From the NCBI GenBank assembly GCA_029260905.1, contig JAJDCH010000011.1, forward strand, positions 512 through 64,511: a stretch of 64,000 bases of DNA, given 5' to 3'. This DNA is from Candidatus Levyibacteriota bacterium. GTDB lineage: Bacteria; Patescibacteriota; Microgenomatia; Levybacterales; UBA12049. The notes beneath the pieces were generated by a model. The model did no database searches and was not told the DNA's origin. It was given only the letters and a program-made list of their open reading frames with translations. The translations under genes were made by a program, and so were the position numbers. Positions 32,676 through 50,647 of this stretch are shown here, piece by piece (the stretch's first letter is position 1; the number at the start of each line of letters is the position of its first letter).

Positions 32676-32699
32676 ATTTATGAATATCAAGGCTTGAAC

Positions 32700-32966
32700 T
32701 TATTTTATATAGTCAAATCTGCCTTTTTGAATTTCCTTTGATCCTCTTGTTACTGTCGCAACTCCAACCTTCAACCTTTTTGCAATCTTCTGATGCGGGA
32801 CACCACGCTTTAACATCTTTATGATTTGCAATCTATTTGGAATTTCATCTATCTCTTTCGAGCTTAAGATTCCAAATAAGAAATCTCGAAGCTCATCTTT
32901 ATCTTTCATCATAGAGATAGTATCTATCAACTCATTAAGATGTTTTCTATTATCTTTCATATCCAT
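32700..32966 (-). CDS. trpR: Trp repressor (TrpR/YerC-YecD family)
   Basis: RLQIIKML..G.PHQKIA..L.VGVATVTRGS; heads the trp operon. Confidence 0.88.
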   Translation of the reverse strand: MDMKDNRKHLNELIDTISMMKDKDELRDFLFGILSSKEIDEIPNRLQIIKMLKRGVPHQKIAKRLKVGVATVTRGSKEIQKGRFDYIK

Positions 32967-32968
32967 TC

Positions 32969-32997
32969 ATTATACTAGTATACTGATATACAGTCAA
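32969..32997 (-). promoter_or_regulatory. trpR-trp operon promoter with TrpR-operator-like palindrome
   Basis: TTGACT-17-TATAAT; overlapping TATACTAGTATA with the CTAG core seen in TrpR operators. Confidence 0.8.
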
Positions 32998-33004
32998 GTG
33001 GTAT

Positions 33005-33778
33005 TTATTTGAGGATGAACAAGAAGAATAAAATAGCAAGAATTATACGGTAAATTCCAAATGGTATAAACGTATGATGTTTTACAAATCTGATCAGAAA
33101 TTTAACAGCAATCATCGCAAAAACAAAAGATCCAATAAATCCAATTGATAAAACTCCCCACTCCTGTCCAGTAAATGAAAGATTGGTTTTTAAAAGATCA
33201 AGTCCTGTTGCAGCAGCCATTGTAGGTATTGCTAAGAGAAAGGAAAATTCGACTGCGGTTTTTCGCTTGGTTCCAACTATCATTGCTCCTATTATTGTTG
33301 CTGCAGCTCGCGATACACCAGGTACGATTGATAAGGTCTGAAAGATTCCAATCAATATTGCATTTTTCGTGGTTATTTTTTCTATTTCAGATACCTCCAG
33401 ATTTTTTTTCCCAAACCAATACTCTACTCCAATCATGATCACTCCACCAATCGCTAATGCCCATAAGGTCACAAATTCATTTCCGATCAGATAACTCTTT
33501 ATAAATTTATACAAAACAAGACCAACAATCGCTGTTGGGATAAACGCAGCAGCAATAGGCCTCCATGTTTTTTTATTCCCCCAAATTGTTTTCCAGTAAA
33601 GAAAAACAACTGCCAAAATTGCGCCAAGCTGGATAATTATTTCAAAGCTTTTGACAAAATCTGTCTGAGGAATATTTAATAATTTTGCGGTAAGGACTAA
33701 ATGTCCTGTTGATGAAATGGGAAGAAATTCGCTAACTCCTTCAACAATTGAAAAAATAAAGGCCTGAAAAAAATCCAT
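33005..33778 (-). CDS. uppP: Undecaprenyl-diphosphate phosphatase
   Basis: EGVSEFLPISSTGH, IQLGA, PGVSR. Confidence 0.94.
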   Translation of the reverse strand: MDFFQAFIFSIVEGVSEFLPISSTGHLVLTAKLLNIPQTDFVKSFEIIIQLGAILAVVFLYWKTIWGNKKTWRPIAAAFIPTAIVGLVLYKFIKSYLIGNEFVTLWALAIGGVIMIGVEYWFGKKNLEVSEIEKITTKNAILIGIFQTLSIVPGVSRAAATIIGAMIVGTKRKTAVEFSFLLAIPTMAAATGLDLLKTNLSFTGQEWGVLSIGFIGSFVFAMIAVKFLIRFVKHHTFIPFGIYRIILAILFFLFILK

Positions 33779-33798
33779 ATAAATATTATATCCTAAAT

Positions 33799-34329
33799 TT
33801 ATTGATCATCTGGTACAAACCTTAACGCAGCTGAATTTATGCAATACCTTTTTCCAGTGGGCTCTGGTCCATCTTCAAAGACATGTCCCAAGTGTCCTTT
33901 GCATTTATCAAGAATCTCTACTCTTTCATAACCCAGGTCAAAATCCGACTGAAGCACCAATGCATCATCACTTATCGGCGCCCAAAAACTAGGCCAGCCG
34001 GTTCCACTATCATATTTTTGCTCTGATCTAAAAACAGGTTCATCACACCCTATGCTTACATAAGTTCCCTTTCTTGTTTCATGATTTAATTCCCCTGTGA
34101 ATGGAGTTTCTGTACCTTTTTCTCTGAGGATAGAGTATTGTTCTGGAGTTAAAATTTTTTTCCAGTCCTGATCTGTTTTAAATCTACTCTTGTCAAATTC
34201 TCCTGATATAATTCTTGCTTCATCTGTCTGTGGTTTCTCAGAAGTTGTACTGGCATTTTTGCTATCTATTGAAAGAACGGTTAACAAAACCAAAAAGACA
34301 ACTCCGATTATGATTAATTTCTTGCTCAC
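33799..34329 (-). CDS. msrB: Peptide-methionine (R)-S-oxide reductase with N-terminal anchor
   Basis: [33 protein letters not shown]. Confidence 0.94.
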
Positions 34330-34358
34330 AAACAGATTATATCAAAACAAATTAGTAA

Positions 34359-34655
34359 TTAATTCTTCTTGGCCTTAACTGTTTTCTTTTTAACTTCTTT
34401 TACTGCTTTTTTAACTCCCTTTTTTATTTTTGGCATTTCTTTTTCTGCGCTCTTTTTCGCTTTGCCATATTTTTTAGTTAAATCAGCATGAAGCTTTCTT
34501 GCCTTTTTGGAAGCACTTGCAAAACCCTTAGCAGCTTTTTGTCTATTCTCTTTTTTGGATAATACCGCTGCTGCAGCTCCTGCGACACCAACTGCTACAG
34601 CTGCTGCTCCAAGCACTGCTCTGCCTACTCTTTTGCTCTTCTTTTTCTTTAACAT
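34359..34655 (-). CDS. Lys/Ala-rich small protein with a GAAA-type hydrophobic segment
   Basis: SD AAAGGGGGTG upstream; low-complexity basic tail. Confidence 0.7.
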   Translation of the reverse strand: MLKKKKSKRVGRAVLGAAAVAVGVAGAAAAVLSKKENRQKAAKGFASASKKARKLHADLTKKYGKAKKSAEKEMPKIKKGVKKAVKEVKKKTVKAKKN

Positions 34656-34733
34656 ATTAATCACCCCCTTTTGTTGTTCTGCTTAATTATAAAGGATTTT
34701 GATAAATTATGAATAAGAAATTTGTAAGAGGAA

Positions 34734-35351
34734 TTAGAAGCCTAGATTCTCTTCAATTAAAATAAACTTTATTTGTCTTTTGGTTATTGGGCTTTCATTT
34801 TTAAAAATCACAATTTTATTCAAACTTGTATTTATTCCGTACAGCTCCTGCATGTGTTTGTCCTCAAGCGGTACGACGTGCTTCTCAAGTCTTTCCATTG
34901 CGGTATTAAAATCAGCAACTATCTTTTTGGTGCTTACAACAAAAATTAAATTTGCTGATGTCGAAACAATATGAGGCAACTGACTACCAGTATTGCTGGC
35001 AACCAAAAATTCACCATTTACAATTAATGCATGAACGCTTCCCAGGTAAAAATCTGAAGTTACGGATTGCTTTCGAAGCGCTGCTCTTTTTATTGGATCT
35101 GATTCAGCTGTTACAGCTTTATGGAGATTGTTCCATTTATGTTTTGAATTTGCCACATAATCAACATATCCGATCTGTTCAAGTGTCACAGATGCGCCAT
35201 TCATCACAGATTTACCATCTGGAATTATGGATTTTATTTTAGAAAGCGCTTCTTCTTTAGAAGTAACGACTGATACTTCATAACCTTTTGCTCTTAACCC
35301 CTCAATTGTTTTGTCTAATAAACTTTTATCTGCTAGTTTGTCAAATTGCAT
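34734..35351 (-). CDS. LUD-domain (LutC-like) protein
   Basis: GASVTL.QIG, LGSVHA, SNTGSQ, KKIV. Confidence 0.8.
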   Translation of the reverse strand: MQFDKLADKSLLDKTIEGLRAKGYEVSVVTSKEEALSKIKSIIPDGKSVMNGASVTLEQIGYVDYVANSKHKWNNLHKAVTAESDPIKRAALRKQSVTSDFYLGSVHALIVNGEFLVASNTGSQLPHIVSTSANLIFVVSTKKIVADFNTAMERLEKHVVPLEDKHMQELYGINTSLNKIVIFKNESPITKRQIKFILIEENLGF

Positions 35352-35413
35352 ATTAGATGTATAATACATATTAAGTATGGATTTAACAAGTAAATACTTT
35401 TTATATACTTAGT

Positions 35414-35725
35414 ATGAAAGATGTTAGCATGTGTCAGTTGGATAAAACTTTAAGCGTAATTGGAGGAAAATGGAAAATGGTCATTCTCTGGCATTTATCC
35501 CACAGTGTGTTGAGGTTTTCTGAGCTTGAGAAAAAAATTCCAGGAATTACCCAAAAAATGCTTTCTCAATCCCTTCGCGAACTTGAAAAAAATAAATTAA
35601 TTTCAAGAAAGGCATATCCTGTCATCCCTCCAAAAGTAGAATACGCGATTACCGCCCATGGCGTATCGCTTGGAGAAGTACTCAAAAAGCTGAATAAATG
35701 GAGTCAGACTCATCTTAAAAAATAA
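35414..35725 (+). CDS. HxlR-family winged-helix regulator
   Basis: IGGKWK..ILWHL..RFSEL..ITQKML..LRELE..PPKVEY. Confidence 0.93.
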   Translation: MKDVSMCQLDKTLSVIGGKWKMVILWHLSHSVLRFSELEKKIPGITQKMLSQSLRELEKNKLISRKAYPVIPPKVEYAITAHGVSLGEVLKKLNKWSQTHLKK

Positions 35726-35887
35726 GCTCCCATACGTGCTAGAACTTGAGTTGTAATGAACAAAGCAAAGCAAAACCGAAGTGTTCGAGGCTAGACAATG
35801 TTAGAACCTGTTTTATGAAACTATGCTAAATGAGCTTGGGGAAAAACAGGCTAAATCTATTTTGGTTGACCACAAAGTGTAATTGGT

Positions 35888-36388
35888 TTATTCACCGGCT
35901 TTTCTGATTGCTTCAAGATCAAGCTTTTTCATTGGCATGAATACAGCGGTTACCGCCTCAGCTTTTTCAGGATCGCGCATCATTTCATCCAGAATCCTTG
36001 GGACTATCTGCCATGTGACACCAAATTTGTCTGTACACCATCCACATTGTTCAGCTTCGGGAACAGCTGAAAGTTTTTCCCAGAAGAAATCAATTTCTTC
36101 TTGTGTCTCACACTCCACAATATAAGATGTTCCGCCGTTAAGTTTGAACTGGTCCATAGGGCCTCCATTAAGAGCCATGAAACTTATTCCATCAAGCTCG
36201 CACTCAGCTGTCAGAACGGACCCCTCTGGTCTACCTGAAACTTCCTCAGATGCCTTGGGGGATTTTGTAATATCTCCAAGTTTTGCGCTGTGATCACCTG
36301 GTGCCGCATTGAAAGTATCTATGTAGTAATTTACTGCCTCTTCACCATTGTTGTTAGCAAACCAGATACATGTAATTAGTTTACTCAT
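35888..36388 (-). CDS. VOC family protein (PhnB-like)
   Basis: ALNGGP, QEEID.FW, CGW..DKFGVTWQI. Confidence 0.9.
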   Translation of the reverse strand: MSKLITCIWFANNNGEEAVNYYIDTFNAAPGDHSAKLGDITKSPKASEEVSGRPEGSVLTAECELDGISFMALNGGPMDQFKLNGGTSYIVECETQEEIDFFWEKLSAVPEAEQCGWCTDKFGVTWQIVPRILDEMMRDPEKAEAVTAVFMPMKKLDLEAIRKAGE

Positions 36389-36459
36389 TTAATATATTTT
36401 AACACATTGTAAGAACCTATTTTGTATTAGTTTTGTAAGCATATCCCTTGTTTGTGCTG

Positions 36460-36576
36460 CTCTCCGTAGTTGACATGTTTAAGAACCGAGAAATAGAGTT
36501 TGGCTTTACTTTACAAAATATACAGACTGTTTTTGAAGCTCTAAATATAACCCTTGGAAATGACTTATCAGTTTAG
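36460..36576 (+). other. Stranded 38-codon open frame, putative native C-terminus of the serine recombinase
   Basis: LSVVDMFKNREIEFGFTLQNIQTVFEALNITLGNDLSV*; in frame with the recombinase across TGCTC; decayed homolog at 48098-48200. Confidence 0.65.
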
Positions 36577-37461
36577 CTCAAAGAAATCCTCGTCCAATTC
36601 TTTGACTTCAAAATTAGACTTAATTTGAACACCTACATTAAATTTAATCATTAAATCGACTAGCTTATTTCCATCGATAAGGATGAGAGTATGATTTCGA
36701 TCGCTAGTAGCTTTGGCAACTGCTGCAGGATCGAACATAGATGTAGTAACAAATATTCCTTTCCGAACATCTCCACTCATTGCTCCTATAAAATTTCTAA
36801 TTTCTGGTTCTCGTACTTTATTCCCATCTTTATATCTTTTAGCTTGAATGTATATTTTTTCTATTCCTAATTGATCTTGATTGATAATACCATCAATACC
36901 CCCATCCCCTGATTTTGGTGTAGATTCAAAATCTCCATAGCCCATTTTTTGGAATAACAGTAAAACAATTTTTTGGAAATAATAAGGATCTACTGAATAC
37001 AGCTTTTCCTGAAGCTCGGCCTCAAGTTTTTCTAATAATTCTTGTACACCCGTTTCAATTAAGTCTTGAGGTGTGTACTTGCTTGTCAGTGGATCACTTT
37101 GATTACTCTTCCTTTTTCTAGGTTCATGAGCTATATAGTCTGGGTCTTGTTTTAAATCATCTAAGGATAGTTCCGTTACTCCTGATTCTAAAAACCGTTT
37201 ACCTTTATCACTAATTTTGACTAAACCTCTGCTTGGTTGATCTACATATTTTCCTACTTTTAGATATGTCTTACCCCAAGCCACCCTGTCGTGGAAAAGG
37301 CTACCACCTGTTGCTTTTGTCTGAGCCAATTCATCTGGTGTCAAATTAAAATACTTAGCGTCTAGAAGCAAAGTCGGTAGATCTGAGGTATTAACTATTC
37401 GATCATCGGCCAGCACTTTTAGTATAGGTAAAAAGGTTTCGTAAAACTTTGGTAATGCCAT
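36568..37461 (-). CDS. mrr: Mrr-family type IV restriction endonuclease
   Basis: Mrr_N (DRVAWGKTYL..G) and Mrr_cat (SGDGGIDGII..IYIQAKRY..GIFVTTS). Confidence 0.93.
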   Translation of the reverse strand: MALPKFYETFLPILKVLADDRIVNTSDLPTLLLDAKYFNLTPDELAQTKATGGSLFHDRVAWGKTYLKVGKYVDQPSRGLVKISDKGKRFLESGVTELSLDDLKQDPDYIAHEPRKRKSNQSDPLTSKYTPQDLIETGVQELLEKLEAELQEKLYSVDPYYFQKIVLLLFQKMGYGDFESTPKSGDGGIDGIINQDQLGIEKIYIQAKRYKDGNKVREPEIRNFIGAMSGDVRKGIFVTTSMFDPAAVAKATSDRNHTLILIDGNKLVDLMIKFNVGVQIKSNFEVKELDEDFFELN

Positions 37462-37546
37462 AAAACATCTAATTTCTATTTGCATTATACATGAATGTTA
37501 AACAATGTTAAAATAGGCTAGAAATAGTTTAAAAATGTAATGAAAT

Positions 37547-38308
37547 ATGCAAAATAATAAAGATGATCTGGGGCTGGTAATATCTGAACTAAATCAATAT
37601 CTACATGTGGGATATACCCTAAAACTAACTTATTTAAAGAAACATGATGTAGACGGACAGAAAGAAGCATTCGATGTTGACGAGTTAAAGAAAGAATATA
37701 ACGAAAAGATAAATATTTGGTTTAAAGAAATAGCAGACCACTTACAGAAGCTAGACTTTCAATACCTCTTTCATTTTGTTCAACCAAAAGACGATGCTAT
37801 GTCTTACTCTCATCCTCTTGGTAATCTTACTCACGCTTTAGAAAAACACCTCTTTGCTTTAGAAGATGTTATTGTTCGTCTTGAGGAAAGAAAGAATTTA
37901 GCAGTAAGACAAGAGATAGCTGATAAAGAATACCAAGTGGACACTCTTTATAAGATTACTTACAGTGAACATTTAAGAGAAATAAAGCTCAACAACATTG
38001 TATTAGCTAACCTCCAATCTGACTCTAAGAATGTTAATTTTTTTGAGTATGTATTCTCAAATCCCAATATACCCTTAGCAGTAAGCGACATTGAGGAAGC
38101 TACAGCAATGCCCTTAGCTTCTAACATTCAGGATATTCTGCGTGATTTAGGCTTCAAGGGAAACATAAGAAAAGTATTCTTCCCTATAGCTACGAAAGCA
38201 AAAGTAATGTTCATGAACCCAATTTCAAAGCAGTATGCTATTAAAAATGATCTCCCGATAATTAAATTGCTAAAAGACAACGAGATAGAACGAGAAGCAA
38301 CGAACTAG
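37547..38308 (+). CDS. Hypothetical protein, possible C-terminal winged-helix domain
   Basis: 253-aa ORF in the element; C-terminal pattern loosely like an OmpR-type wHTH (inference). Confidence 0.6.
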   Translation: MQNNKDDLGLVISELNQYLHVGYTLKLTYLKKHDVDGQKEAFDVDELKKEYNEKINIWFKEIADHLQKLDFQYLFHFVQPKDDAMSYSHPLGNLTHALEKHLFALEDVIVRLEERKNLAVRQEIADKEYQVDTLYKITYSEHLREIKLNNIVLANLQSDSKNVNFFEYVFSNPNIPLAVSDIEEATAMPLASNIQDILRDLGFKGNIRKVFFPIATKAKVMFMNPISKQYAIKNDLPIIKLLKDNEIEREATN

Positions 38309-38317
38309 AACGGGAAG
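38278..38317 (+). repeat. Four phased 10-bp repeats with core AACG(A/G)
   Basis: caacgagata gaacgagaag caacgaacta gaacgggaag. Confidence 0.7.
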
Positions 38318-38375
38318 TTGCCACCCACAACCGTAAAAGCCATTTCTCCCTCCATATTTCTCCTATTCTGTTTGC

Positions 38376-38525
38376 GTGGATATAAATACGCAAGCTATTC
38401 AAAATAATCTGAATGAGCCACCCTCTAATGATGAGGAATTGGATAGGATTTCTCAATTTTTTTTACTTCTAATTGAAATTGATAAAAAGCAAAAACAGAA
38501 AGGTAAAACAGATGAAAATAAGTGA
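38376..38525 (+). CDS. Small 49-aa ORF (GTG start) upstream of spoVG-like gene
   Basis: MDINTQAIQNNLNEPPSNDEELDRISQFFLLLIEIDKKQKQKGKTDENK; overlaps the next start. Confidence 0.5.
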   Translation: MDINTQAIQNNLNEPPSNDEELDRISQFFLLLIEIDKKQKQKGKTDENK

Positions 38526-38802
38526 AATACAAATTATTCCTATCAAACCTCAAAACGGATTAGTTGCCTTTGTCAGCTTCGTATTGGAAGAAAATCTGTA
38601 TCTAGGTTCAATCGGTATTCTCACAAAACCCGAAGGAGGATATAGGCTCGTTTATCCCACTAAAAAAGTAGGAGTGCGAAGCATGAATATATTCCATCCA
38701 ATAAATAAAGATTTCTCTCAATCTATAGAAAAGGAGGTCATCAGTAAATTTGAAGATGTAATGAAAAAATATGATAGATACGATAAAGCTGACATTAGAT
38801 AA
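38512..38802 (+). CDS. SpoVG-like nucleic-acid-binding protein
   Basis: MKISEIQI..GLVAFVSF..YP.K..IFHPI pattern. Confidence 0.75.
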   Translation: MKISEIQIIPIKPQNGLVAFVSFVLEENLYLGSIGILTKPEGGYRLVYPTKKVGVRSMNIFHPINKDFSQSIEKEVISKFEDVMKKYDRYDKADIR

Positions 38803-39910
38803 AAGTATGGTTTCTATATTGAACAAAGACTTATTCCAGAAAGAAACTCAAAATGCCTCAAGGGGCTACTTTACTCTTGTGCAAAATCCAACAAAAGCTG
38901 AATTAAGGAACGGAATTTATAAGCCAAGATTAACCCTAACCAAAAGATTTAATACTTCGGGTAGATCTGAGTTGACCTTGTCTGTGGAACTCTCACTGCC
39001 AAAATTACTTTATGGAAACAACTTTGATGAGGTAAATGATGATGACTTTCCGATTGTCATAGACAAACTTAGTAATGTACTAAAAACAATGGGTGTAAGG
39101 GTGTTTAAGGAAATTCTCACATCAGCTCCTGTATCAGCTGTGCACTATTCAAAAAATATTCCCCTTACCGATGGCTCTACTCCTCATTACTTAATAAAGA
39201 AGATCAAAGAAGCAAACATTTCCTTAGCTCTTGATGTAAATCAAACTGATTACCGCAATGACGGACACAGTTATAAGTGGCACAGCAACTCTTACGAGGT
39301 GGCTTTTTATGACAAGATTAAAGATCTCGAAATGGCTGTCAAAAGCGATAAAAGATCTATAGAAAAAGATAATCGTTTACAACTCCACCTTTTCAACCAA
39401 ATAACTAAAAAACAAAAAACAGAAGTCTTACGGATGGAAGTAAGACTCAATAATAGACAAAAATTGAAGCAATTATTTAAGACTCTTAATATTGATAGTG
39501 AGCTCATTTTTAAGAGCTTGTTCAGTAAAGATATTTCTCAGTGCATACTCCTGCACTACTTAAGCGAAATAGAAAAACAGCGACCAAAGATACTAGACTA
39601 TTCCCCTTCCAACCCAACTTCTCTTCTAGCTGAAATTATTATCAGTAATCCCAATCTTGGAGCACAGAAAGTATTGCAGCTATTTGGATTAAAACAAGCT
39701 CTTGATACTATTCCTCCTCGTGAATTAAGAGTTATGCTTGGTAAATCTAGCAATAGAAGTTGGTACAGGTTAATCTCACAAACCAAAAACGTTGCACTCC
39801 CCAGTGTTAATAGCCCTTTTGAAGCTATAAGAAAAAACTTGATGGACTTTGAACTAGTAAAACTAGTTGATTTACAAGTCAAAATGTTAAATAATGATAA
39901 ATATAACTAA
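38771..39910 (+). CDS. Putative replication initiator (gene II/X, Rep_trans-like)
   Basis: MIDTI, ELSLPKLLYGNN, AFYDK, VLRMEVRL motifs. Confidence 0.65.
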   Translation: MIDTIKLTLDKSMVSILNKDLFQKETQNASRGYFTLVQNPTKAELRNGIYKPRLTLTKRFNTSGRSELTLSVELSLPKLLYGNNFDEVNDDDFPIVIDKLSNVLKTMGVRVFKEILTSAPVSAVHYSKNIPLTDGSTPHYLIKKIKEANISLALDVNQTDYRNDGHSYKWHSNSYEVAFYDKIKDLEMAVKSDKRSIEKDNRLQLHLFNQITKKQKTEVLRMEVRLNNRQKLKQLFKTLNIDSELIFKSLFSKDISQCILLHYLSEIEKQRPKILDYSPSNPTSLLAEIIISNPNLGAQKVLQLFGLKQALDTIPPRELRVMLGKSSNRSWYRLISQTKNVALPSVNSPFEAIRKNLMDFELVKLVDLQVKMLNNDKYN

Positions 39911-39911
39911 T

Positions 39912-40085
39912 ATGCCAGATGAGCAATATCACTCCATAGAAGAAGTCGCAAAGTTATTAAATGTGGCTTACTTAACGGTTTATCGTTGGGTAAAAAGTGG
40001 AAAGCTTCACGCTATTAAAGCTGGAAAGCAGTATCGAATAAATAAGGATGATCTAAATTCCTTTACTAGGATTAACAAAAAATAA
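39912..40085 (+). CDS. Excisionase-like HTH protein
   Basis: SIEEVAKLLNV..TVYRWVKSGKL.A.KAGKQYRI. Confidence 0.88.
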   Translation: MPDEQYHSIEEVAKLLNVAYLTVYRWVKSGKLHAIKAGKQYRINKDDLNSFTRINKK

Positions 40086-40086
40086 C

Positions 40087-41907
40087 ATGGCAAACGAAAG
40101 AAAAACAGAAAACATCGTTAGAGAACATTTTAATCGATACAAAGAGCAATTAATTATTGAGGAGCAGTCTTCCGATGTTCCTAAGATAGATAAGTTGCTG
40201 CGACTTGCTTCAAAAAAAGGGAATGGTAAAGGATTCCCAGAGTTTATTATCAGATTTAAGAACAACCCCGATCTAATAATCGTAATAGAATGTAAAGCTG
40301 ACTTCCTAAAACACGAAAGCGAAAATAGAGATAGATATAGTGAATACGCTGTAGATGGTGTCTTACTTTATGCATCATATTTAGCAAAAGAATTTGACGT
40401 TTTAGCAATAGCGGTAAGCGGTGAATCCTTAAACCAATTAAAAGTGTCCCATTTCCTTCAACTGAAAAGTGATAACAAACCAACTCAAAAATTTGGAGTA
40501 CAACTACTTCCTGCAAATGATTACCTTGAGGGATATATCAAGAGTCCTGAGAAATTTCGTCAGGATTACGAAAAGTTACTCACCTTTTCTAAGGAACTAA
40601 ACGAGAAATTGCATGGCTATAAAATTTTAGAAAGTGATAGAAGCCTATTAATTAGCTGTATATTAATTGCACTTGAAAATACTGCATTTATTAAAACTTA
40701 CAAGGATTACTCAAGGGCTGAGGACTTAGCAAGATATCTAGTTGATACGGTAGAGATGGAGTTCAAAAACTCCAATATTCAAGATAAAAAACTCTCAATC
40801 GTTAAGGCTCGGTTTGAATTTATTAAAACTGATACTTCTCTTTCAACAGTTGATGGTGTTCTAAAAGAAATAATTACAGATATTAATGACAACATCAATT
40901 CATTTGTTAGGACTCATAGATACTTCGACGTATTGGGTCAGCTTTACGTTGAGTTTCTAAGATATGCAAACAGTGATAAAGGTCTAGGTATCGTACTTAC
41001 CCCTCCTCATATAACCGAATTTATGGCTGAACTCGCAGAGGTAAATAGAAGCAGCGTTGTATATGACAACTGTACAGGCACTGGAGGATTTCTTGTAAGT
41101 GCAATGAATTTAATGATTAAAGACGCCAAAGACGATTTAGACTTAATTAAAAACATAAAACAACATCAACTGATTGGCGTTGAGTATCAAGCTCACATTT
41201 TTGCTCTTGCTTGTTCAAATATGTTTATTCATCAAGACGGTAAGTCAAGCATACTTAATGGAAGTTGTTTTGACAAAACAATAATTGAACAAGTTAAGGC
41301 TTATAAACCAACAGTTGGTTTATTAAACCCTCCTTACAAAGCAGATAAGAAGAATGACGTTGAAGAACTAGAGTTCATAGTTAATAACTTGGAATGTTTA
41401 GAACAAGGTGGTCGATGTGTTGCAATCGTGCCTATGTCATCGGCATTAGCACAGAAAGGGAAAATTTTACAACTAAAGAAAAAGCTATTGGATAATCATA
41501 CTTTAGAAGCAGTACTCTCCATGCCAGACGAGCTTTTCTTTAACTCGAATGTGGGTGTTATCTCTTGTATTATGGTCTTTACAGCAAAAAGACCTCACCC
41601 ATCTAATAAGAAAACTTTTTTCGGTTATTTCAAAGATGACGGGTTTGAAAAGAGAAAAATGAAGGGAAGAATTGATATTAAAGGTAAATGGAAGTCAATT
41701 AAAGATAGTTGGATTGAAGCATATGTGAATAGGCAAGATATTGCAGGTTCAAGCGTCAATCAAGCAGTTAGAGCCGAAGATGAATGGTGTGCAGAAGCCT
41801 ATATGGAAACTGATTACACTGTTTTAACTAAGAAAGATTTTATTAAATCGGTAAAGGAATTTGTTTATTTTAAAGAGCTATTTACTTATGAAACTAAAGA
41901 AAATTAA
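40087..41907 (+). CDS. BcgI-like (type IIB) fused endonuclease / N6-adenine methyltransferase subunit
   Basis: N-terminal PE..IECK nuclease; DNCTGTGGF; NPPY; DEWC. Confidence 0.85.
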   Translation: MANERKTENIVREHFNRYKEQLIIEEQSSDVPKIDKLLRLASKKGNGKGFPEFIIRFKNNPDLIIVIECKADFLKHESENRDRYSEYAVDGVLLYASYLAKEFDVLAIAVSGESLNQLKVSHFLQLKSDNKPTQKFGVQLLPANDYLEGYIKSPEKFRQDYEKLLTFSKELNEKLHGYKILESDRSLLISCILIALENTAFIKTYKDYSRAEDLARYLVDTVEMEFKNSNIQDKKLSIVKARFEFIKTDTSLSTVDGVLKEIITDINDNINSFVRTHRYFDVLGQLYVEFLRYANSDKGLGIVLTPPHITEFMAELAEVNRSSVVYDNCTGTGGFLVSAMNLMIKDAKDDLDLIKNIKQHQLIGVEYQAHIFALACSNMFIHQDGKSSILNGSCFDKTIIEQVKAYKPTVGLLNPPYKADKKNDVEELEFIVNNLECLEQGGRCVAIVPMSSALAQKGKILQLKKKLLDNHTLEAVLSMPDELFFNSNVGVISCIMVFTAKRPHPSNKKTFFGYFKDDGFEKRKMKGRIDIKGKWKSIKDSWIEAYVNRQDIAGSSVNQAVRAEDEWCAEAYMETDYTVLTKKDFIKSVKEFVYFKELFTYETKEN

Positions 41908-42850
41908 CGAGTTATTTGATATTCAATATGGCAATAGTCTTGAGCTAGTAAATCTAACTGAGTGTGAGGCTGAAGATTTACACTCAGTAAACTTTGTGTC
42001 AAGAACTGAAAAGAATAACGGTGTTTCTGGAATAGTTGAGCAGCTACCTGACCTTGAACCTTTCGAGGCTGGACTCATTACAGTTGCTGGGAGTGGAAAC
42101 TCGGTTTTATCATCATTTATCCAAACTAAGCCATTCTATACAGGATTTCATGTATTTATTCTTCGTCCTCTATCTCCTATGTCTATGATAGATAAACTTT
42201 TCTACTGCTATACCATCAGATTAAATCAATATAAATATAGTTTTGGTCGTCAAGCGAATAAGACATTAAAAGATTTGTTAATTCCAAGCGAAGTACCCGA
42301 TGATTGGAAGAAGCTGGACATTAATAGTTTGAATAATCTCAACAACCAGAGCTTTGATCACAATGATATTAACCTAAATTCTTCTAACTGGGAGTATTTT
42401 AATTTAACGGACTTATTTGAAATTTCAGCTTCAAGAGATGAGTTAATAAATGATCTGAACCTTGGAGGCACAACGCCTTATATAACTTCATCAGACAAAA
42501 TGAATGGAATAACTTCAACAGTTGAAGACGAACCAACAAATCCCGCTGGAACGATAACTGCTAATCGAGGCGGCTCCGTAGGATATTTTTATTACCAACC
42601 CTTCCCTTATAAATCAACTCCAGTTGACGTAAGAATATTAACACCTAAGTTTCAAATAAATGTATATATTGGTTTATTTCTTAAAACCATACTTCAGTTA
42701 GAAAAATACAGATTTAATTACAGTAGGAAGATGGGTAGTGATCGACTAGCTGAATTTAGAATAAAATTACCAACCGAAAACGGTCAACCAAGCTGGTCAT
42801 TTATGGAACAATATATTAAGAGCTTGCCCTATTCAAGTAATTTAAACTAA
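41888..42850 (+). CDS. R-M specificity subunit (two TRDs, BcgIB-like)
   Basis: Internal duplication (LFDI..G/LFEI; KYSFGRQ/RFNYSRK); FMEQYIKSLPYS tail. Confidence 0.82.
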   Translation: MKLKKINELFDIQYGNSLELVNLTECEAEDLHSVNFVSRTEKNNGVSGIVEQLPDLEPFEAGLITVAGSGNSVLSSFIQTKPFYTGFHVFILRPLSPMSMIDKLFYCYTIRLNQYKYSFGRQANKTLKDLLIPSEVPDDWKKLDINSLNNLNNQSFDHNDINLNSSNWEYFNLTDLFEISASRDELINDLNLGGTTPYITSSDKMNGITSTVEDEPTNPAGTITANRGGSVGYFYYQPFPYKSTPVDVRILTPKFQINVYIGLFLKTILQLEKYRFNYSRKMGSDRLAEFRIKLPTENGQPSWSFMEQYIKSLPYSSNLN

Positions 42851-42852
42851 AT

Positions 42853-44334
42853 ATGAAAGCTATCGTAATCGCACGAGTTAGTACAGAAGAACAAAAAGAG
42901 GCTGGTAACTCCCTACCCGCACAAATTGCTAGGCAGAAGAAGTACTTTCAGAGTAAAGGATACCTGATAGAAAAAGAGTTTAGCTTTGATGAAAGTGCCT
43001 ACAAGAATAAAAGAGATGATTTTGACAATATATTGGACTATGTCCTTTCCCAGAAGGAAAAAATCGCAGTAGGATTTGATAAGGTTGATAGGCTATCCCG
43101 TAACATCTTTGATAAGCGTGTTTCTTTTCTTTACGAAAAGGCATTAAGAGATGAGATTGAAATACATTTTGTATCTGATGGTCAGGTTATAACAAGCCAT
43201 TTATCTGCAGTTGAAAAGTTTAATTTTAGTATAAGTCTTGGTCTAGCAAAGTATTATTCTGACGCCATAAGCGATAATGTTAAGCGTGCTCAAGAACAAA
43301 TGCTACGAAATGGGATCTATCCTAGCCGTCCCTCTTTTGGATATAAACGAGCTCCAATAACTAAAGATAAAACAGAAATTGTAGTTGATGAATATGCTTC
43401 TGTAATAGTAAGAAAAGCATATGAGCTTTATGCGACAGGTAGTTTTTCATTGGATTTGTTACGAAAAAAACTCAAAGAAGACTACGGAGTTAATTGGTCG
43501 CATGGCTGGACTGATAAAATTCTAAAAGATCACTTCTACTACGGTGTAATGACTTGGAATAAAAAGCAGTATAACCATAGGTATACTCCTATTATCACAA
43601 AAGCATTATTTGACCAAGTACAACAAATTAAGGCGGGTTTTAATAAGAAACGCTTCAAATATGCTGGATTGCCTTATGTTTTTCGTGGCTTATTACGCTG
43701 TGGGCATTGTGGGCTGTCTATTACACCAGAAAAGCAGAAAGGACATGTCTACTACCATTGTACGCAGTATAACGGCAAACACGGAGCAGAATGGCTACGA
43801 GAAGAAGAAATTACTAATCAGATAGGAAGGGTATTTAAGAATCTACAGTTGCCAGAAGATACATTAAGGAAAGTCGTTGAAACATTAAACTCTACTCATC
43901 AAAACAAAATGGACTTTCAAAATAAGCAGTTTGATAAATTAACCAAAGAAAGGACTGTAACAACCAATATGATTGATAATCTTTATCTTGATAAGTTAAA
44001 GGGGCGTATTACTGATGATGAGTATGACAGGTTTTATCAGTCATTCCGTGAACAATTAAGTGATATAGATACTCGGTTGGCATTACTTCAAGAAGCAGAA
44101 GATAACTACTACATTACGGCTAAATACATATTGGATTTGGCAAATCGGGCGTATGATCTGTTTGTAAGTTCTGAACTTGAAGAAAAACGGCAGTTAATCA
44201 AACTTGTACTTAAGAACCTTAAATTAGAGGGAAAAACTGTTCAATTTGAGGCTGTTAAACCCTTTGATACACTACTATCGTATCAAGATTATCTACCTAT
44301 GCTCCCCCGCGAGGATTCGAACCTCGGACCTTGA
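42853..44334 (+). CDS. Large serine recombinase (integrase); last codons are antisense tRNA
   Basis: ARVST, DRLSR, recombinase domain, CGHC..YYHC zinc ribbon, coiled coil; ends MLPREDSNLGP*. Confidence 0.95.
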   Translation: MKAIVIARVSTEEQKEAGNSLPAQIARQKKYFQSKGYLIEKEFSFDESAYKNKRDDFDNILDYVLSQKEKIAVGFDKVDRLSRNIFDKRVSFLYEKALRDEIEIHFVSDGQVITSHLSAVEKFNFSISLGLAKYYSDAISDNVKRAQEQMLRNGIYPSRPSFGYKRAPITKDKTEIVVDEYASVIVRKAYELYATGSFSLDLLRKKLKEDYGVNWSHGWTDKILKDHFYYGVMTWNKKQYNHRYTPIITKALFDQVQQIKAGFNKKRFKYAGLPYVFRGLLRCGHCGLSITPEKQKGHVYYHCTQYNGKHGAEWLREEEITNQIGRVFKNLQLPEDTLRKVVETLNSTHQNKMDFQNKQFDKLTKERTVTTNMIDNLYLDKLKGRITDDEYDRFYQSFREQLSDIDTRLALLQEAEDNYYITAKYILDLANRAYDLFVSSELEEKRQLIKLVLKNLKLEGKTVQFEAVKPFDTLLSYQDYLPMLPREDSNLGP

Positions 44335-44373
44335 AGTTAACAGCTTCCTGCTCTACCGCTGAGCTACAGGGGA
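44302..44373 (-). tRNA. tRNA-Asn(GTT), CCA not encoded
   Basis: Cloverleaf with acceptor TCCCCTG/CGGGGGA, anticodon loop CTGTTAA, T-loop GTTCGAATC. Confidence 0.97.
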
Positions 44374-44432
44374 ATATTTCCGTATCTTCATCAGAATACA
44401 CGGTAATGGCTATTTTAGCATTTAATCCTCCT

Positions 44433-44466
44433 CAAATCCAGCTAGAAAATTAACGTAAAACCTAGT
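44433..44466 (+). repeat. 34-bp direct repeat, copy 1
   Basis: CAAATCCAGCTAGAAAATTAACGTAAAACCTAGT, identical at 47353-47386. Confidence 0.95.
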
Positions 44467-44552
44467 CGCGGAGCCAAGTTCATTTTTGAAATCCTTAAAG
44501 ATTCTTAATATAACTAACTTCTGAATTATCTTCTTACATTACCCTATTTTGC

Positions 44553-44584
44553 TTAAGAAAACCTTAAGGAAAGTACGATATACT
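44553..44584 (+). promoter_or_regulatory. TTAAG-N6-TTAAG response-regulator box plus -10
   Basis: Followed 10 nt later by TATACT; same geometry at 46284 and 46509. Confidence 0.7.
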
Positions 44585-44591
44585 TCATATC

Positions 44592-45263
44592 ATGAGAATA
44601 CTTATTGTAGAAGACGAAATAAAACTGGCAAATGCTACTAAAAGAGCATTAGAGATACAAAAATATGCGGTAGATGTAGCATATACTGGGACAACTGGAC
44701 TAGACATGGCAATTGGAGAAGACTACGATTTAATTATTCTTGATGTGATGTTGCCTGGAACAGATGGTATCGAAGTATGCAGACAGATACGCACCGCGGG
44801 TAAGCATGTACCCATACTAATGTTAACTGCAAAAGGACAAGTAACAGACAAGGTTATTGGTCTTGATGTAGGTGCTGATGACTATGTTGTGAAGCCATTT
44901 TCATTTGAAGAGTTATTTGCACGAGTACGGGCACTTATACGTCGTCCAAAAAATACTACAGATACTATTCTTAAAATCCAAGATCTTACACTTGATCCTC
45001 AATCTTTCAAGATTACTCGAGCAGGAAAAGATATTGAACTTTCCACAAAGGAATTTTCCCTTCTTGAATATTTACTAAGAAATAAAAACAGAGTTTTATC
45101 GCGGGAACAAATTGTAGCTCATGTTTGGGATTATGACGCTGATGTACTTCCAACTACAATTGAGGTTCATATAAAACACCTGCGAGACAAGATTGATGCT
45201 CAGCATAATATACGAGTAATTAAAACTGTTCGAGGTAGAGGGTATACGATTAGAGATGAATAA
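44592..45263 (+). CDS. OmpR-family response regulator
   Basis: ILIVEDE, LDVMLP, LTA, GADDY..KPF, TVRGRGY. Confidence 0.96.
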   Translation: MRILIVEDEIKLANATKRALEIQKYAVDVAYTGTTGLDMAIGEDYDLIILDVMLPGTDGIEVCRQIRTAGKHVPILMLTAKGQVTDKVIGLDVGADDYVVKPFSFEELFARVRALIRRPKNTTDTILKIQDLTLDPQSFKITRAGKDIELSTKEFSLLEYLLRNKNRVLSREQIVAHVWDYDADVLPTTIEVHIKHLRDKIDAQHNIRVIKTVRGRGYTIRDE

Positions 45264-45266
45264 ATT

Positions 45267-46280
45267 ATGTTTGAAAAGGCACGATTAAAATTAACCACTT
45301 GGTATCTACTAATAATTACGCTTATTACCGTTTTGTTCAGCATTGCCTTCTACCAGGCATCAACACGGGAGGTTGAACGATTAATTAATAGAATAGAATT
45401 TAGACAAGAGTTTCCTGGTATGTCTATTCCAGACAGACCTCCTCGTGGTGCTCCAACTCAACCAAATCTTGAAGAGTTAGAACAATCAAAAAGACAGTTA
45501 CTCTTTATACTAATTGTGATAAATTCGGGGGTAATAGTAGTTGCTGGAGTAGCAAGTTATTTCCTTGCTGGTAGAACACTACGTCCTATCAAGCTTATGC
45601 TAGATGAGCAAGATCAATTTATTTCAAACGCATCTCATGAATTAAGAACTCCAATTGCTACCATGAGAGCAGAAATGGAAGGAAGTTTGCTAGAAAAACA
45701 TATATCTGATAAAAATGCTAGGAGTTTAATTTTTAGCAACCTACAAGAGCTTGGTTCTTTGCAAAATTTAACCAACAATCTTTTGAAGCTTGCCCAAGTT
45801 CATAACTCTAGTTTTGATAACAATATGCACAAACTTTCTCTTCTTGAGATTATTAAATCTGCTAAAAATAAAGTTGCTATATTGGCTAGTAAAAAACAAA
45901 TCAAGATACTAATTAGGTTAGAAGAGTATTTTATTATTGGAGATAAAGCAAATCTTACAGAAGTGTTTGTAACACTGTTGGATAACGCTATTAAATATAG
46001 TCCAACAAAAAGTAACATTAAAATTATTTCAGAAAAACAGAATAAAGTTGTAAAGATATCAATCGTAGATCAAGGAGAGGGTATCTCTAACCGAGATCTG
46101 CCACATGTGTTTAGGAGATTTTTTCGGTCTGATAAGTCTCGTTCCAAGACAGAGGGTTATGGACTCGGACTTTCTATTGCACAAAGAATTGTTGAGACAC
46201 ATAAAGGGTTACTCACGGTAAAAAGTATTGAAAAAAAAGGTACAACATTTATTGTTCAGCTTCCCTTGATTAACTTCTAG
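45267..46280 (+). CDS. Sensor histidine kinase
   Basis: Two TMs, SHELRTP, LDNAIKYS, D.GEGI, GYGLGLSI. Confidence 0.96.
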   Translation: MFEKARLKLTTWYLLIITLITVLFSIAFYQASTREVERLINRIEFRQEFPGMSIPDRPPRGAPTQPNLEELEQSKRQLLFILIVINSGVIVVAGVASYFLAGRTLRPIKLMLDEQDQFISNASHELRTPIATMRAEMEGSLLEKHISDKNARSLIFSNLQELGSLQNLTNNLLKLAQVHNSSFDNNMHKLSLLEIIKSAKNKVAILASKKQIKILIRLEEYFIIGDKANLTEVFVTLLDNAIKYSPTKSNIKIISEKQNKVVKISIVDQGEGISNRDLPHVFRRFFRSDKSRSKTEGYGLGLSIAQRIVETHKGLLTVKSIEKKGTTFIVQLPLINF

Positions 46281-46283
46281 AAT

Positions 46284-46315
46284 TTAAGTAATTGTTAAGA
46301 ATGATTCATTAAATT
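46284..46315 (+). promoter_or_regulatory. TTAAG-N6-TTAAG box plus -10 (TAAATT)
   Basis: Same spacing as the other two boxes. Confidence 0.55.
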
Positions 46316-46338
46316 AAGGTCATAGAAAGATTCTATCT

Positions 46339-46512
46339 ATGACAAATCCTACAAATATCATTGTTTTCTACAAGAGCGAATTAATAATTTTATCAATCCT
46401 GAGTTTTAAGAAAGTAAATACTTCAATAAGAGTTTTTTATAACTATTTTCTTGATATTCTTGTCGACAAAACCATATCTATTATAGAAGAGGATGGGAGA
46501 GAAGAAAATTAA
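46339..46512 (+). CDS. Small 57-aa ORF
   Basis: MTNPTNIIVFYKSELIILSILSFKKVNTSIRVFYNYFLDILVDKTISIIEEDGREEN fills the gap behind a regulator box. Confidence 0.45.
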   Translation: MTNPTNIIVFYKSELIILSILSFKKVNTSIRVFYNYFLDILVDKTISIIEEDGREEN

Positions 46513-46540
46513 GCACATCTTAAGACACATTATTTATAGT
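46509..46540 (+). promoter_or_regulatory. TTAAG-N6-TTAAG box plus -10 (TATAGT)
   Basis: Upstream of the exported protein with SD GAAAGGAGGTG. Confidence 0.7.
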
Positions 46541-46568
46541 AGGAAAGTGAGAAAGGAGGTGAAACAAA

Positions 46569-47105
46569 ATGAATAAAAAAACAATCGCAACATTCGCAGT
46601 CGTAACAGTACTAGGGCTTGGGATATTGGGATCATCGAGTGCATTTGCACAAAGTGCATCGAATAGTCAAAGCCCAATGTCCTCACTTGTGCAAAGAGTT
46701 GCAGAAAAGTTTGGTCTAAACCAAACAGACGTGCAAGCAGTCTTTGACGAAGCGCATGAGGAAAAGAAAGCCGAGAAGCAGGCTAATTTTGAGACTAAGC
46801 TCTCCCAGTATGTAGCAGACGGGAAGATAACTGAAGATCAAAAACAGCTTATTCTTCAGAAGCGTACCGAGCTAGATGCTCAACGTGAAACGAACAAAGA
46901 AAGTATGCAAAATCTTTCTGGTGATGAACGTAGAGCAAAAATGGAAGAAGAAAGATCTGCGCTTGAAGCTTGGGCAACGGAAAATGGTATTGACATCCAA
47001 TATCTGATGCCACAAGGAGGACGCGGCCATGGAGGCTTCAGAGGTCCCGGAGAACGACCAGCAGATGCACCAGAGGCAACTGTTGCTCCAACAACTACTC
47101 AATAA
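46569..47105 (+). CDS. Exported helical protein
   Basis: Signal peptide ending AFA; V.DGKITEDQ motif; strong SD. Confidence 0.8.
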   Translation: MNKKTIATFAVVTVLGLGILGSSSAFAQSASNSQSPMSSLVQRVAEKFGLNQTDVQAVFDEAHEEKKAEKQANFETKLSQYVADGKITEDQKQLILQKRTELDAQRETNKESMQNLSGDERRAKMEEERSALEAWATENGIDIQYLMPQGGRGHGGFRGPGERPADAPEATVAPTTTQ

Positions 47106-47124
47106 AAGGTAGTAGTGAAACCTT

Positions 47125-47160
47125 AAAACAGCTCCCAGTTACCTCTGGGAGCTGTTTTTA
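47125..47160 (+). terminator. Intrinsic terminator
   Basis: AAAACAGCTCCCAG-ttacct-CTGGGAGCTGTTTT. Confidence 0.9.
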
Positions 47161-47352
47161 ATTATGAAACTAGATTGTTTTGGACTATAAATTGGAGCAC
47201 TACGTAATTTCTTTGTCTCATTCCATCTTTGCCTCAAGACTCCAATGTTTATCAGGTTCTTCAAACGATACCGAGCCATCGATTCCCATACAATTGCAAC
47301 TAAATATAGCTAACAAAAGAGACCAGAGATAAGCGAGCTAGATTTTTCAAAC

Positions 47353-47386
47353 CAAATCCAGCTAGAAAATTAACGTAAAACCTAGT
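47353..47386 (+). repeat. 34-bp direct repeat, copy 2
   Basis: Identical to 44433-44466. Confidence 0.95.
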
Positions 47387-47408
47387 AAAGCAAAAGGATA
47401 TTAGATTG

Positions 47409-48041
47409 TTAGTAGACGCGTTTTTTACAAGATGCAGAACCAAGCCATGTATGAGGGTTGCCATCCCAACACCATCCCAGATTAGGCTGCTTTTTTGCAT
47501 TAATCCAGATTGCAGGTACTCGTTGGTCACCCTCGTGTCGTGAGGCAAGTAAGGAAAAACAGTTATTCTTAATCAAAAATTCTGGATAGTGTGTAACTAT
47601 TGCAATACCTTCATCAATAGCAAGAGGCGAGCGACCCTTTTCTACTATTTTATTCATGGCTATGCTTGGGGGTTGATTGATATTGTCCTTACCTCTATCA
47701 ATATCTATAAGCAAGTAGGCTTTGGTGTTAGGAATGTTGACGTTTGAGATAGTGTTAAAGTCACTTGGTGTATGAGGGAACAATTTTATAATTCCAGTTT
47801 TACCATCCTTCTCAACCAATGACATAGCTTTATTGGTTGGGATTAAGTCGCTTTTAACGACAATTACAAAAGGTAAATATCCCTTATCAAAATCACCTTC
47901 TGGTAAATCAAGCTTCTCAACCTCTGCCCTTAATGGTTCAAGAAGATTAATAAATTCACTTTTTGAAATACCAGCTAATTTGTGGTATTCCTTTTGAACG
48001 AGATTTTGAAGTTGGTTATTAAATTCTTGTGTTAATTTCAT
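47409..48041 (-). CDS. DUF5701-like protein
   Basis: GRSPL.IDEGIA, NNCFSLLASR..DQRVPAIW..P.LGWCWDGNPHTWLGSASC. Confidence 0.75.
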   Translation of the reverse strand: MKLTQEFNNQLQNLVQKEYHKLAGISKSEFINLLEPLRAEVEKLDLPEGDFDKGYLPFVIVVKSDLIPTNKAMSLVEKDGKTGIIKLFPHTPSDFNTISNVNIPNTKAYLLIDIDRGKDNINQPPSIAMNKIVEKGRSPLAIDEGIAIVTHYPEFLIKNNCFSLLASRHEGDQRVPAIWINAKKQPNLGWCWDGNPHTWLGSASCKKRVY

Positions 48042-48097
48042 ATCATCCTTTATTGTACAAAATCTACTTAGATCTACAAAGACATAAGGCTAACAAA

Positions 48098-48200
48098 TTA
48101 AGCACAAGCGGTTTGGATACCAAAGGCTTCAAATACTGCCTGGTGTTCTGTAGAGTAAAACCAAACCCTATCGGTTCTTAAATGGGTTTACCAAGGAGAA
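48098..48200 (-). pseudogene. Decayed homolog of the stranded recombinase tail
   Basis: Hand alignment to 36460-36540 gives about 70% identity with two small deletions and mostly synonymous changes. Confidence 0.7.
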
Positions 48201-48259
48201 ATTGGGTAGTCTTTTTATGATATATTGTAAGTAGTATTCATACTTGATAAAATTGATTT

Positions 48260-48673
48260 ATGAAAAATACTTATATCAATATCCCCATCAGAAATGTAGC
48301 AGATACTGACAAGTTTTTCAGGGCGCTTGGAATGGAAAAAAATGAACAATTTGCAAGCGATGACACCACCAACGCACGAATTAATGATAATACTGTTTTG
48401 ATGCTTTTAGAAGACAAACGATTTGCAAGCTTTATCAAGCAAGAACCCAAAAAACTAGAGGGTGGCTTTATCGTCTCCCTGGAGTTTGAAAGTAAAGAAG
48501 AGGTTGATGCCATGTTTAAAAAAGCTATTGAAGCTGGAGCGACAGATACCACGAATTCAGACACAGCAGTTAATTTTATGTATGTTAAATCCATTAAGGA
48601 TATAAACGGGCATTACTGGGAGTTTTTTGTTATGTTGGGTCAAATGCCAACAGCTGAGCACCCCGCAACTTAA
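48260..48673 (+). CDS. VOC/glyoxalase family protein
   Basis: INIP..FF.ALG, EEVD, MY..DINGHYWE. Confidence 0.85.
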   Translation: MKNTYINIPIRNVADTDKFFRALGMEKNEQFASDDTTNARINDNTVLMLLEDKRFASFIKQEPKKLEGGFIVSLEFESKEEVDAMFKKAIEAGATDTTNSDTAVNFMYVKSIKDINGHYWEFFVMLGQMPTAEHPAT

Positions 48674-48717
48674 ACCTAAACCATAGATTTATCCTGAAAT
48701 TAGTGTATAATACAGAT

Positions 48718-48849
48718 ATGGCAAAAAGAGATACAGGAGTTGGGAAAAAAAGAAATAAATTAAAAAGACCTCACAAAACAGCAAAGCGCTTGATGGCCAA
48801 AAAAGTCATGCTTGAAGCTAAAAAACCTGCAAAACGCCGCGCAAAATAA
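48718..48849 (+). CDS. Small highly basic 43-aa protein
   Basis: MAKRDTGVGKKRNKLKRPHKTAKRLMAKKVMLEAKKPAKRRAK; TATAAT 6 nt upstream; 19 K/R. Confidence 0.75.
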   Translation: MAKRDTGVGKKRNKLKRPHKTAKRLMAKKVMLEAKKPAKRRAK

Positions 48850-48870
48850 AACTCCTGATATAATGACTAG

Positions 48871-49266: not shown

Positions 49267-49315
49267 AAAGTCATTTTCTTCCAAAAAACTTACATTTCTG
49301 ATATAAAATATATTT

Positions 49316-50212: not shown

Positions 50213-50214
50213 GT

Positions 50215-50601: not shown

Positions 50602-50647
50602 TCTCATTTAATCTCTCCAGTTTCTGTGCTAGAGTATATACATACCT

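Follow-up and report, generated by a model that had tools for sequence, protein, structure and literature searches.

A large serine recombinase gene with its crossover inside its own reading frame at a tRNA-Asn tip of a Levyibacteriota genome, and a conserved C-terminal tail that may set the direction of recombination

The window analyzed here, a 64,000-nucleotide stretch of DNA from Candidatus Levyibacteriota bacterium (GenBank assembly GCA_029260905.1, contig JAJDCH010000011.1, positions 512 to 64,511), contains a 7.8-kb element that abuts the 3′ tip of tRNA-Asn, and the crossover that would insert and excise this element lies inside the gene for its own large serine recombinase (LSR). The reading that we favor by a slight balance of probability, with the help of structure prediction, is that the C-terminal tail that integration would separate from the enzyme clamps the base of the coiled coil, the arm of the enzyme that controls direction, and sets the enzyme for integration. 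The layout is real and well supported, and a state-dependent switch in function is what we infer from it and from the modeled contacts.

As the first-pass annotation of this DNA had proposed, the LSR gene reads into the antisense strand of tRNA-Asn, the only tRNA-Asn called in the genome (954 kb in 17 contigs), and residues 485-493 of the integrated form are encoded by antisense tRNA. Serine catalytic, recombinase, and zinc-ribbon domains all score above Pfam cut-offs. The protein falls below the NCBIfam equivalog cut-offs for CcrB (52.6 of 900) and XisF (90.4 of 375), its closest named relatives are found in records from Patescibacteria and Dependentiae, and it is the single recombinase in the element and, by tblastn, in the genome. 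At the far end of the element, the pentamer TGCTC recurs in the same codon phase, as had also been noted, and leads into a distal frame that is open from 36457, with 38 codons running from 36460 to a stop at 36574-36576. Joining the two cores yields a protein of 521 aa that ends in 37 tail residues in place of nine, and excision at the core would yield a computed circle of 7,842 bp. The tRNA body through C74 is preserved in both the integrated and the excised states, and the first ∼25 bp of the orphan tail double as an attP arm. The crossover within the integrase open reading frame (ORF), in frame with a distal tail, is the arrangement of att-inside-integrase systems.

TGCTC occurs 10 times in the 10 kb to the left of the tRNA, which is chance level, and the boundary therefore rests on relatives. 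A repeat finder revealed no long direct repeat marking the element ends. Homology to a relative of the same genus (G001) fades at ∼36416-36445, near the distal junction; the tRNA of that genome lies in another context, together with a partial tRNA copy, and cannot confirm the predicted empty site. A separate observation is that 41 nt of another contig (C14:2681-2721) are 78% like 36401-36441, just left of the distal junction.

Relatives were fetched as the best 79 of 132 matching genome stretches and the best 80 of 248 matching metagenome stretches. Among 128 distinct LSR ends, 94 adjoin an antisense tRNA called by ARAGORN (Asn 34, Asp 18, Glu 17, Arg 16, and Gln 9), 21 lie at a tRNA-like T-loop, and 13 lie at something else. 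A profile built from the tail located 67 orphan tails upstream on the LSR strand, none downstream on that strand, and two on the opposite strand (loci not dereplicated), in agreement with the expectation that the tail should sit at the island end opposite a tRNA-adjacent recombinase. Where ∼10 kb of upstream DNA was available, the tail was present in 45 of 67 loci. The 62 LSR-tail pairs reduced to 57 unique pairs, 51 of which have a tRNA-type junction, with L044 and L062 excluded as rearranged. In 38 of these 51 elements, the in-frame diagonal by itself carried the longest word shared by the two junctions; in five it was tied, and in eight the word lay elsewhere. The values for 10,200 displaced controls were 2.4% (alone) and 6.5% (tied), and the left boundary is in frame.

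Over the Trp-Leu codons, identity between the junctions is maximal at positions 3-6 (0.86-0.96). When attP was reconstructed for the 51 elements, the best dyad was centered between positions 5 and 6 (0.50, compared with 0.14-0.36 at 15 other centers), and the crossover is accordingly assigned to TC (tRNA nucleotides 72/71); no dyad was found at TC in attB of the same elements. In the present element alone, the attP dyad holds at 5 of 12 positions, and the crossover would be the TC dinucleotide at 44303-44304 and 36461-36462. In 106 of 115 LSRs, the codon at the junction is TGG (CCA when read on the tRNA strand), and TGG is found at 46 of 51 element sides versus 20 of 51 host sides; in this element, the junction codon is ATG, not TGG. 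In 83 LSRs spanning five tRNA types, the target has changed 11 times with the frame maintained. LSR and tail distances are correlated (Mantel 0.48, 48 elements), a value that is confounded by kinship and is not used as proof of co-evolution.

Selection on the tail was assessed with 78 gap-free tails, 69 after dereplication at 90%. For codons 12-30, which lie past the 25-bp binding arm, the ratio of nonsynonymous to synonymous substitution rates (dN/dS) was a rough 0.09 (345 pairs) and stops were absent (0 of 69), compared with ratios of 0.34-2.6 and 35-68 stops in the remaining five frames. The orphan tail is therefore protein-coding, as the first-pass annotation had held, and under purifying selection. 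Conservation as a mere DNA-binding constraint is ruled out for codons 12-30 and may still apply to codons 4-11. A DNA profile gave 86 tail matches, seven of which had been missed by the protein profile, and at least two of those seven are visibly broken. The endings that the LSR acquires in the integrated state are of a different kind: among 115 integrated LSRs, 54 reach a stop within five residues of the junction, 42 run for 6-20 residues, and 19 run longer. Because these endings are not conserved, integration is best read as loss of a tail module rather than as a swap for a designed second tail. The earlier proposal that integration exchanges the C terminus thus stands for the loss of a conserved tail; the variable tRNA-derived ending is not a second module.

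Tail homologues fused to recombinases occur in nature: the tail terminates the LSR ORF in 12 of 160 loci, of which one duplicates another, and also in P0001 and P0110. Most fused cases are tandem arrays, in which the outer LSR has acquired the tail of a newer, tRNA-proximal element. Of 120 close protein homologues, 53 stop within five residues, 48 end in a tRNA-derived peptide, 18 have other endings, and one carries this tail. Orphan tails are stacked at one end of L002, L026, L029, L060, L064, L113, L138, L169, and L173, and these stacks appear to record serial insertions whose integrases were lost. In L044 (1569-13720), three mixed-orientation LSR copies, one of them tail-fused, lie near tRNA-Val and tRNA-Asn in a rearranged array. 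Other tail families occur in P0013, P0020, P0026, P0029, P0040, P0053, P0063, and P0094 and have in common only the first helix, W-L-x-x-x-[D/N/S]-x-[F/L/I]-R; judged from these sequences, the same frame convention appears to span further LSR subfamilies.

One of the 160 loci, L069, is a whole contig of 9,230 bp whose ends share a repeat of 75 nt that falls within a gene. The core genes of the family are present, a tRNA is absent, and the LSR, tailed and 531 aa long, is 54% identical to the window LSR. Over 42 nt, the DNA that follows its crossover matches the L064 orphan tail at 90% identity; in L064, this tail lies 8 kb upstream of an LSR with a stop just ahead of the junction, and the two LSR proteins are 88% identical. 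L069 thus has the makeup predicted for the circle of a relative. That the circular form encodes a longer protein was accordingly seen in this relative and not for the element in the window.

The natural fused protein of L169 was modeled as a single chain and took on the fold of an LSR, matching SPbeta integrase best (E 1.5e-17), with the tail left unplaced. The structure of LI integrase aligns only to position 464 of the 511-position profile, and the crossover lies near 484; hence, the tailless form retains the canonical LSR domains. When LSR residues 268-484 and their own tail were instead submitted as two chains, the prediction scored 0.61, versus 0.02 for the best of three controls, with runs agreeing in at least 94% of contacts and a partner predicted local distance difference test (pLDDT) score of at least 76. 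Of 157 solved pairs, 116 attained the pass mark, as did 2 of 215 mismatched pairs; these counts are only rough with the alignments used here. Contacts were predicted with LSR residues 333-348, 418-451, and 468-477, a region comprising both strands of the coiled-coil base and the zinc-ribbon helices after it; Leu17, Ile20, and Val24 of the tail and LSR residues 422, 425, and 429 belong to the modeled interface. The tail is therefore predicted to pack on the coiled-coil base and the zinc-ribbon helices.

The direction of serine integrases is normally set by a separate factor. On the reading favored here, the free circle, which probably replicates by a rolling-circle mode, would encode the tailed 521-aa LSR, and the integrated copy would encode the tailless 493-aa LSR. 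Since the tailed enzyme is the one that an incoming circle has to use for integration, the tail should favor or permit attP × attB recombination. The tailless chromosomal enzyme would keep its core domains with the docking surface free and would be poor at integration; it would excise only with a separate factor seated on the freed surface, likely the helix-turn-helix (HTH) or SpoVG protein of the element. A broader proposal, which we hold more tentatively, is that a widespread family of tRNA-tip LSRs carries its own directionality module as a tail added and removed by recombination: the circle would be locked for integration, the chromosomal form would have its recombination directionality factor (RDF) site open, and newcomers to an array would hand a tail to the previous resident.

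Several observations weigh against this interpretation. With respect to the layout, neither the circle nor the empty-site junction of this element was seen; contigs from four DNA runs of one study held no joint of any kind over 32000-51000 and are uninformative either way. The tail is missing from 22 of the 67 loci with 10 kb upstream, and the in-frame diagonal is not the best in 8 of 51 elements. The LSR of L069 is only 54% identical to that of the window and carries a divergent kind of tail, and a head-to-tail repeat that had collapsed would look the same as a circle once assembled. With respect to selection, dS is near saturation (pS, the proportion of synonymous differences, 0.69), which makes dN/dS rough, and detection of tails with a protein profile is biased toward open frames. 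With respect to docking, the tail in the L169 model is a helix-loop-helix with a pLDDT of only 50-56, the tail site was matched to the RDF site by domain position rather than by superposed models, and the pass could stem from a contiguous fold or from solved integrase-RDF complexes already known to the predictor. Array LSRs bearing this tail are only 22-35% identical to the window LSR, and 18 of 120 subfamily proteins have other endings, many resembling unrelated tails, which suggests that a tight cognate fit may be unnecessary. Finally, the HTH gene was detected in only 34 of 61 elements and went undetected in most of those in Dependentiae-labeled records.

The alternative that survives best, although we consider it rather unlikely, is damping of the kind described for phage Mx8: the tail would complete the fold, and the tailless enzyme would be weak or unstable in both directions, leaving the element locked in until a tailed enzyme arrives from a circle or a tandem neighbor. 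Truncation would expose a large predicted hydrophobic interface (∼75 contacts), and the stacked orphan tails without an LSR point to frequent decay. The altered integrase of Mx8 is less active, according to the available part of PMC4701971, and McMurdie et al. proposed, in the available part of PMC3146451, that dsiB functions solely when on the circle or next to a neighboring island. However, the truncated form retains every domain of solved LSRs, an excisionase-like gene is retained in 34 of 61 elements, and a circle-like contig (L069) exists. It is still less probable that there is no switch and that the overlap merely joins the integrase to attP, with the Trp codon supplying the CCA of the tRNA and the tail helping somewhat while both forms act alike. 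The predominance of TGG at the junction and its excess on element sides would be explained in this way, as would the tolerance of arrays for foreign tails. This account sits poorly with purifying selection on a 20-codon stretch that is readable only in the circular or tandem state, with survival of the frame across target changes, and with the ATG junction codon of the window. Least probable is that the orphan tail is a separate peptide made from the integrated state that acts on the integrase in trans: there is an in-frame ATG at 36475 and the prediction docks the two pieces as separate chains, but only 21 of 69 tails have this Met (26 have Ala), the promoter-like match at 36470-36499 overlaps the tail rather than preceding it, and the natural forms are covalent fusions.

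Canonical LSRs (SPbeta SprA, Bxb1, LI/A118, and phiC31) resemble this enzyme in domain set and fold, and probably in a dyad attP with a 2-bp center, and their genes are intact in both states. Reportedly, Mx8 targets a tRNA, and mycobacteriophage BPs is said to carry attP within its repressor gene. The closest published parallels were drawn from sources available in part. In the ssrA islands of Dehalococcoides, DsiB is an LSR of ∼540 aa whose 3′ end always overlaps att at the 3′ end of the transfer-RNA-gene DNA (tDNA), and the islands form tandem arrays (McMurdie et al. 2011, PMC3146451); both the overlap and the arrays are shared with the present family. McMurdie et al. suggested that dsiB reaches its full length only when it is on the circle or when another island lies next to it (PMC3146451). 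The DsiB islands differ in their transfer-messenger RNA target, in a second recombinase, DsiA, and in a six-gene module (PMC3146451), whereas the present family has tRNA targets (Asn, Asp, Glu, Arg, and Gln), a Rep-SpoVG-HTH core, and no DsiA. The element in the window, with tRNA-Asn as its target and one recombinase only, falls outside the Dehalococcoides type. The available part of the DsiB account shows neither a conserved tail nor a test for selection, and neither a circle nor a docking site (PMC3146451); alignments of DsiB are given in its supplements and could affect how novel the tail is.

In the rumA integrative and conjugative elements (ICEs) as well as the vanG elements, att lies inside the serine-integrase gene, the C terminus is state-dependent, and a functional difference has been proposed (PMC4701971, PMC4120198, available parts); Ambroset et al. 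noted the split layout for the rumA ICE serine integrases, citing Mx8 (PMC4701971). These systems (streptococcal ICEs and vanG) are conjugative, target a protein gene, and fuse in frame to RumA ends (PMC4701971, PMC4120198), whereas the present family is small, non-conjugative, and directed to tRNA tips with a variable antisense ending. In Mx8 IntP/IntX, attP lies inside int, and integration places a short peptide at the C terminus and lowers activity (described in PMC4701971; title in PMC4383910). The likeness lies in an att site inside the integrase gene and a C terminus lost on integration; Mx8 differs as a phage with a tyrosine recombinase in which 112 residues are replaced by 13. The suicidal integrases of the SSV1 type, which the first-pass annotation had put forward as an analogy, also have att within the integrase gene, but they are tyrosine recombinases of archaea, and their split separates an N half from a catalytic C half (PMC8371274, available part). 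Here, all core domains of a serine enzyme (catalytic, recombinase, zinc-ribbon, and coiled-coil) stay on one side and only a 37-residue tail is lost, and serine dsiB, the rumA ICEs, and Mx8 are nearer relatives in layout.

According to the Islander work, no serine integrase was known to have a tRNA as its target (PMC4383910, available part). In phiRSM, a small serine recombinase uses a tRNA 3′ end in reverse orientation with a core that begins TGG, although the enzyme is of resolvase type, the element is a filamentous phage, attP lies between ORF14 and ORF15, and the core is 13 nt (PMC3816273, available part); phiRSM is thus a small-recombinase exception to that statement. The available part of the tycheposon preprint (10.1101/2020.12.28.424599) holds nothing on an att-inside-integrase layout. 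No account of this tRNA-tip family or of a tail test was found in the literature searched, outside which most subscription journals lie. The layout is known from dsiB, the rumA ICEs, and Mx8, and a tRNA-targeting family with a conserved tail is apparently new.

If the favored reading is correct, a tail gained and lost through recombination itself would constitute a self-contained direction switch and would answer a question open for dsiB since 2011 and for the rumA ICEs since 2016. Mining integrated copies of this family yields truncated integrases, which may prove inactive when assayed and whose annotated C termini are antisense tRNA. Cores of the family at tRNA 3′ tips are 3-10 nt, under what tRNA-fragment island finders expect, and the family carries restriction systems in small-genome bacteria.

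The features of the element are collected in Table 1, in which gene-content counts refer to 61 related elements with both ends visible. The Rep-like gene is found in nearly all of these, compared with six for the methyltransferase and one for mrr, and Rep and LSR are therefore regarded as core and the defense genes as cargo. The Rep-like product had no match in Pfam, PHROG, or NCBIfam; its Atlas feature matches (0.96-0.97) are to clusters with PF05144 on 25-31% of members and serve as a lead only, and the protein is likely a rolling-circle replication initiator.

Table 1. Coordinates of the element, its junctions, and associated features in the window
Feature	Positions	Strand	Basis
Distal junction core TGCTC	36458..36462	+	In-frame register common to 38/51 related elements
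Orphan 37-codon C-terminal tail of LSR, with stop	36463..36576	+	dN/dS, fused homologues, predicted docking
Mrr type IV restriction enzyme, cargo	36568..37485	-	Pfam, PADLOC; 1/61 elements
Uncharacterized 253-aa gene, semi-core	37547..38308	+	No Pfam match; 11/61 elements
SpoVG-family DNA-binding protein, core	38473..38802	+	Pfam PF04026; 37/61 elements
Likely rolling-circle replication initiator (Phage_CRI/G2P-like), 379 aa, core	38771..39910	+	60/61 elements
Excisionase-family HTH protein, candidate directionality factor	39894..40085	+	HTH_17, TIGR01764; 34/61 elements
Type IIG restriction-methyltransferase and specificity subunit, cargo	40087..42850	+	PADLOC, Pfam; methyltransferase in 6/61 elements
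LSR, integrated form, 493 aa	42853..44334	+	Pfam Resolvase, Recombinase, Zn_ribbon_recom; PHROG 95 integrase
tRNA-proximal junction core TGCTC	44300..44304	+	Sequence; family identity peak, attP dyad center
tRNA-Asn(gtt), target	44301..44373	-	ARAGORN; sole called tRNA-Asn of genome
Frameshifted relic tail of another, lost family member	48098..48199	-	nhmmer E 3e-9

No virion or conjugation genes were found among the element genes with Pfam and PHROG. A search of viral contigs gave five pattern matches, none a relative, and plasmid and phage collections contained only distant LSRs, with at most 33% identity among the matches listed. The two best phage-collection records (L183 and L184) are linear fragments ending in tRNA-Leu and tRNA-Glu, respectively, and not circles; their distant LSRs (28-30% identity) run into antisense tRNA-Leu and tRNA-Glu at L183:2302-2389 and L184:9082-9156. 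In several related elements, Erm-type cargo lies directly upstream of the LSR, as exemplified by an Erm-family 23S rRNA methyltransferase at L009:9109-9993 (NCBIfam NF000499, 213.3 versus a cut-off of 212), and similar genes occur in L115, L118, and L122.

A second copy of the tail at 48098-48200 had been offered as synonymously diverged evidence for coding. The match is real (alignment score 91.5, compared with at most 66.5 for 3,000 random genome pieces), but the copy lies on the minus strand and is frameshifted by 4-nt and 1-nt deletions, and it lends weak support for coding. It is nearer to the tail of L119 (score 122.5) than to that of the element in the window (87.5); together with the deletions and the strand, this rules out a clean synonymous duplicate. 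As the copy is a decayed relic, the support for coding comes from the 69 tails elsewhere.

Compared with G001 (C1:128362-135215), the region of about 35730-44441 has tRNA-Asn and a VOC gene inverted relative to their neighbors, and G001 has a partial tRNA-Asn copy and different genes on the 3′ side of the tRNA. Before such an inversion, the minus-strand relic would have pointed like the distal tail of an array; local gene order relative to G001 differs by more than one event. VOC/glyoxalase-family genes flank the element on both sides (35888-36388, 48260-48673, and 49316-50601). On the 5′ side of the tRNA, an exact 34-bp direct repeat (44433-44466 and 47353-47386) brackets a two-component system block.

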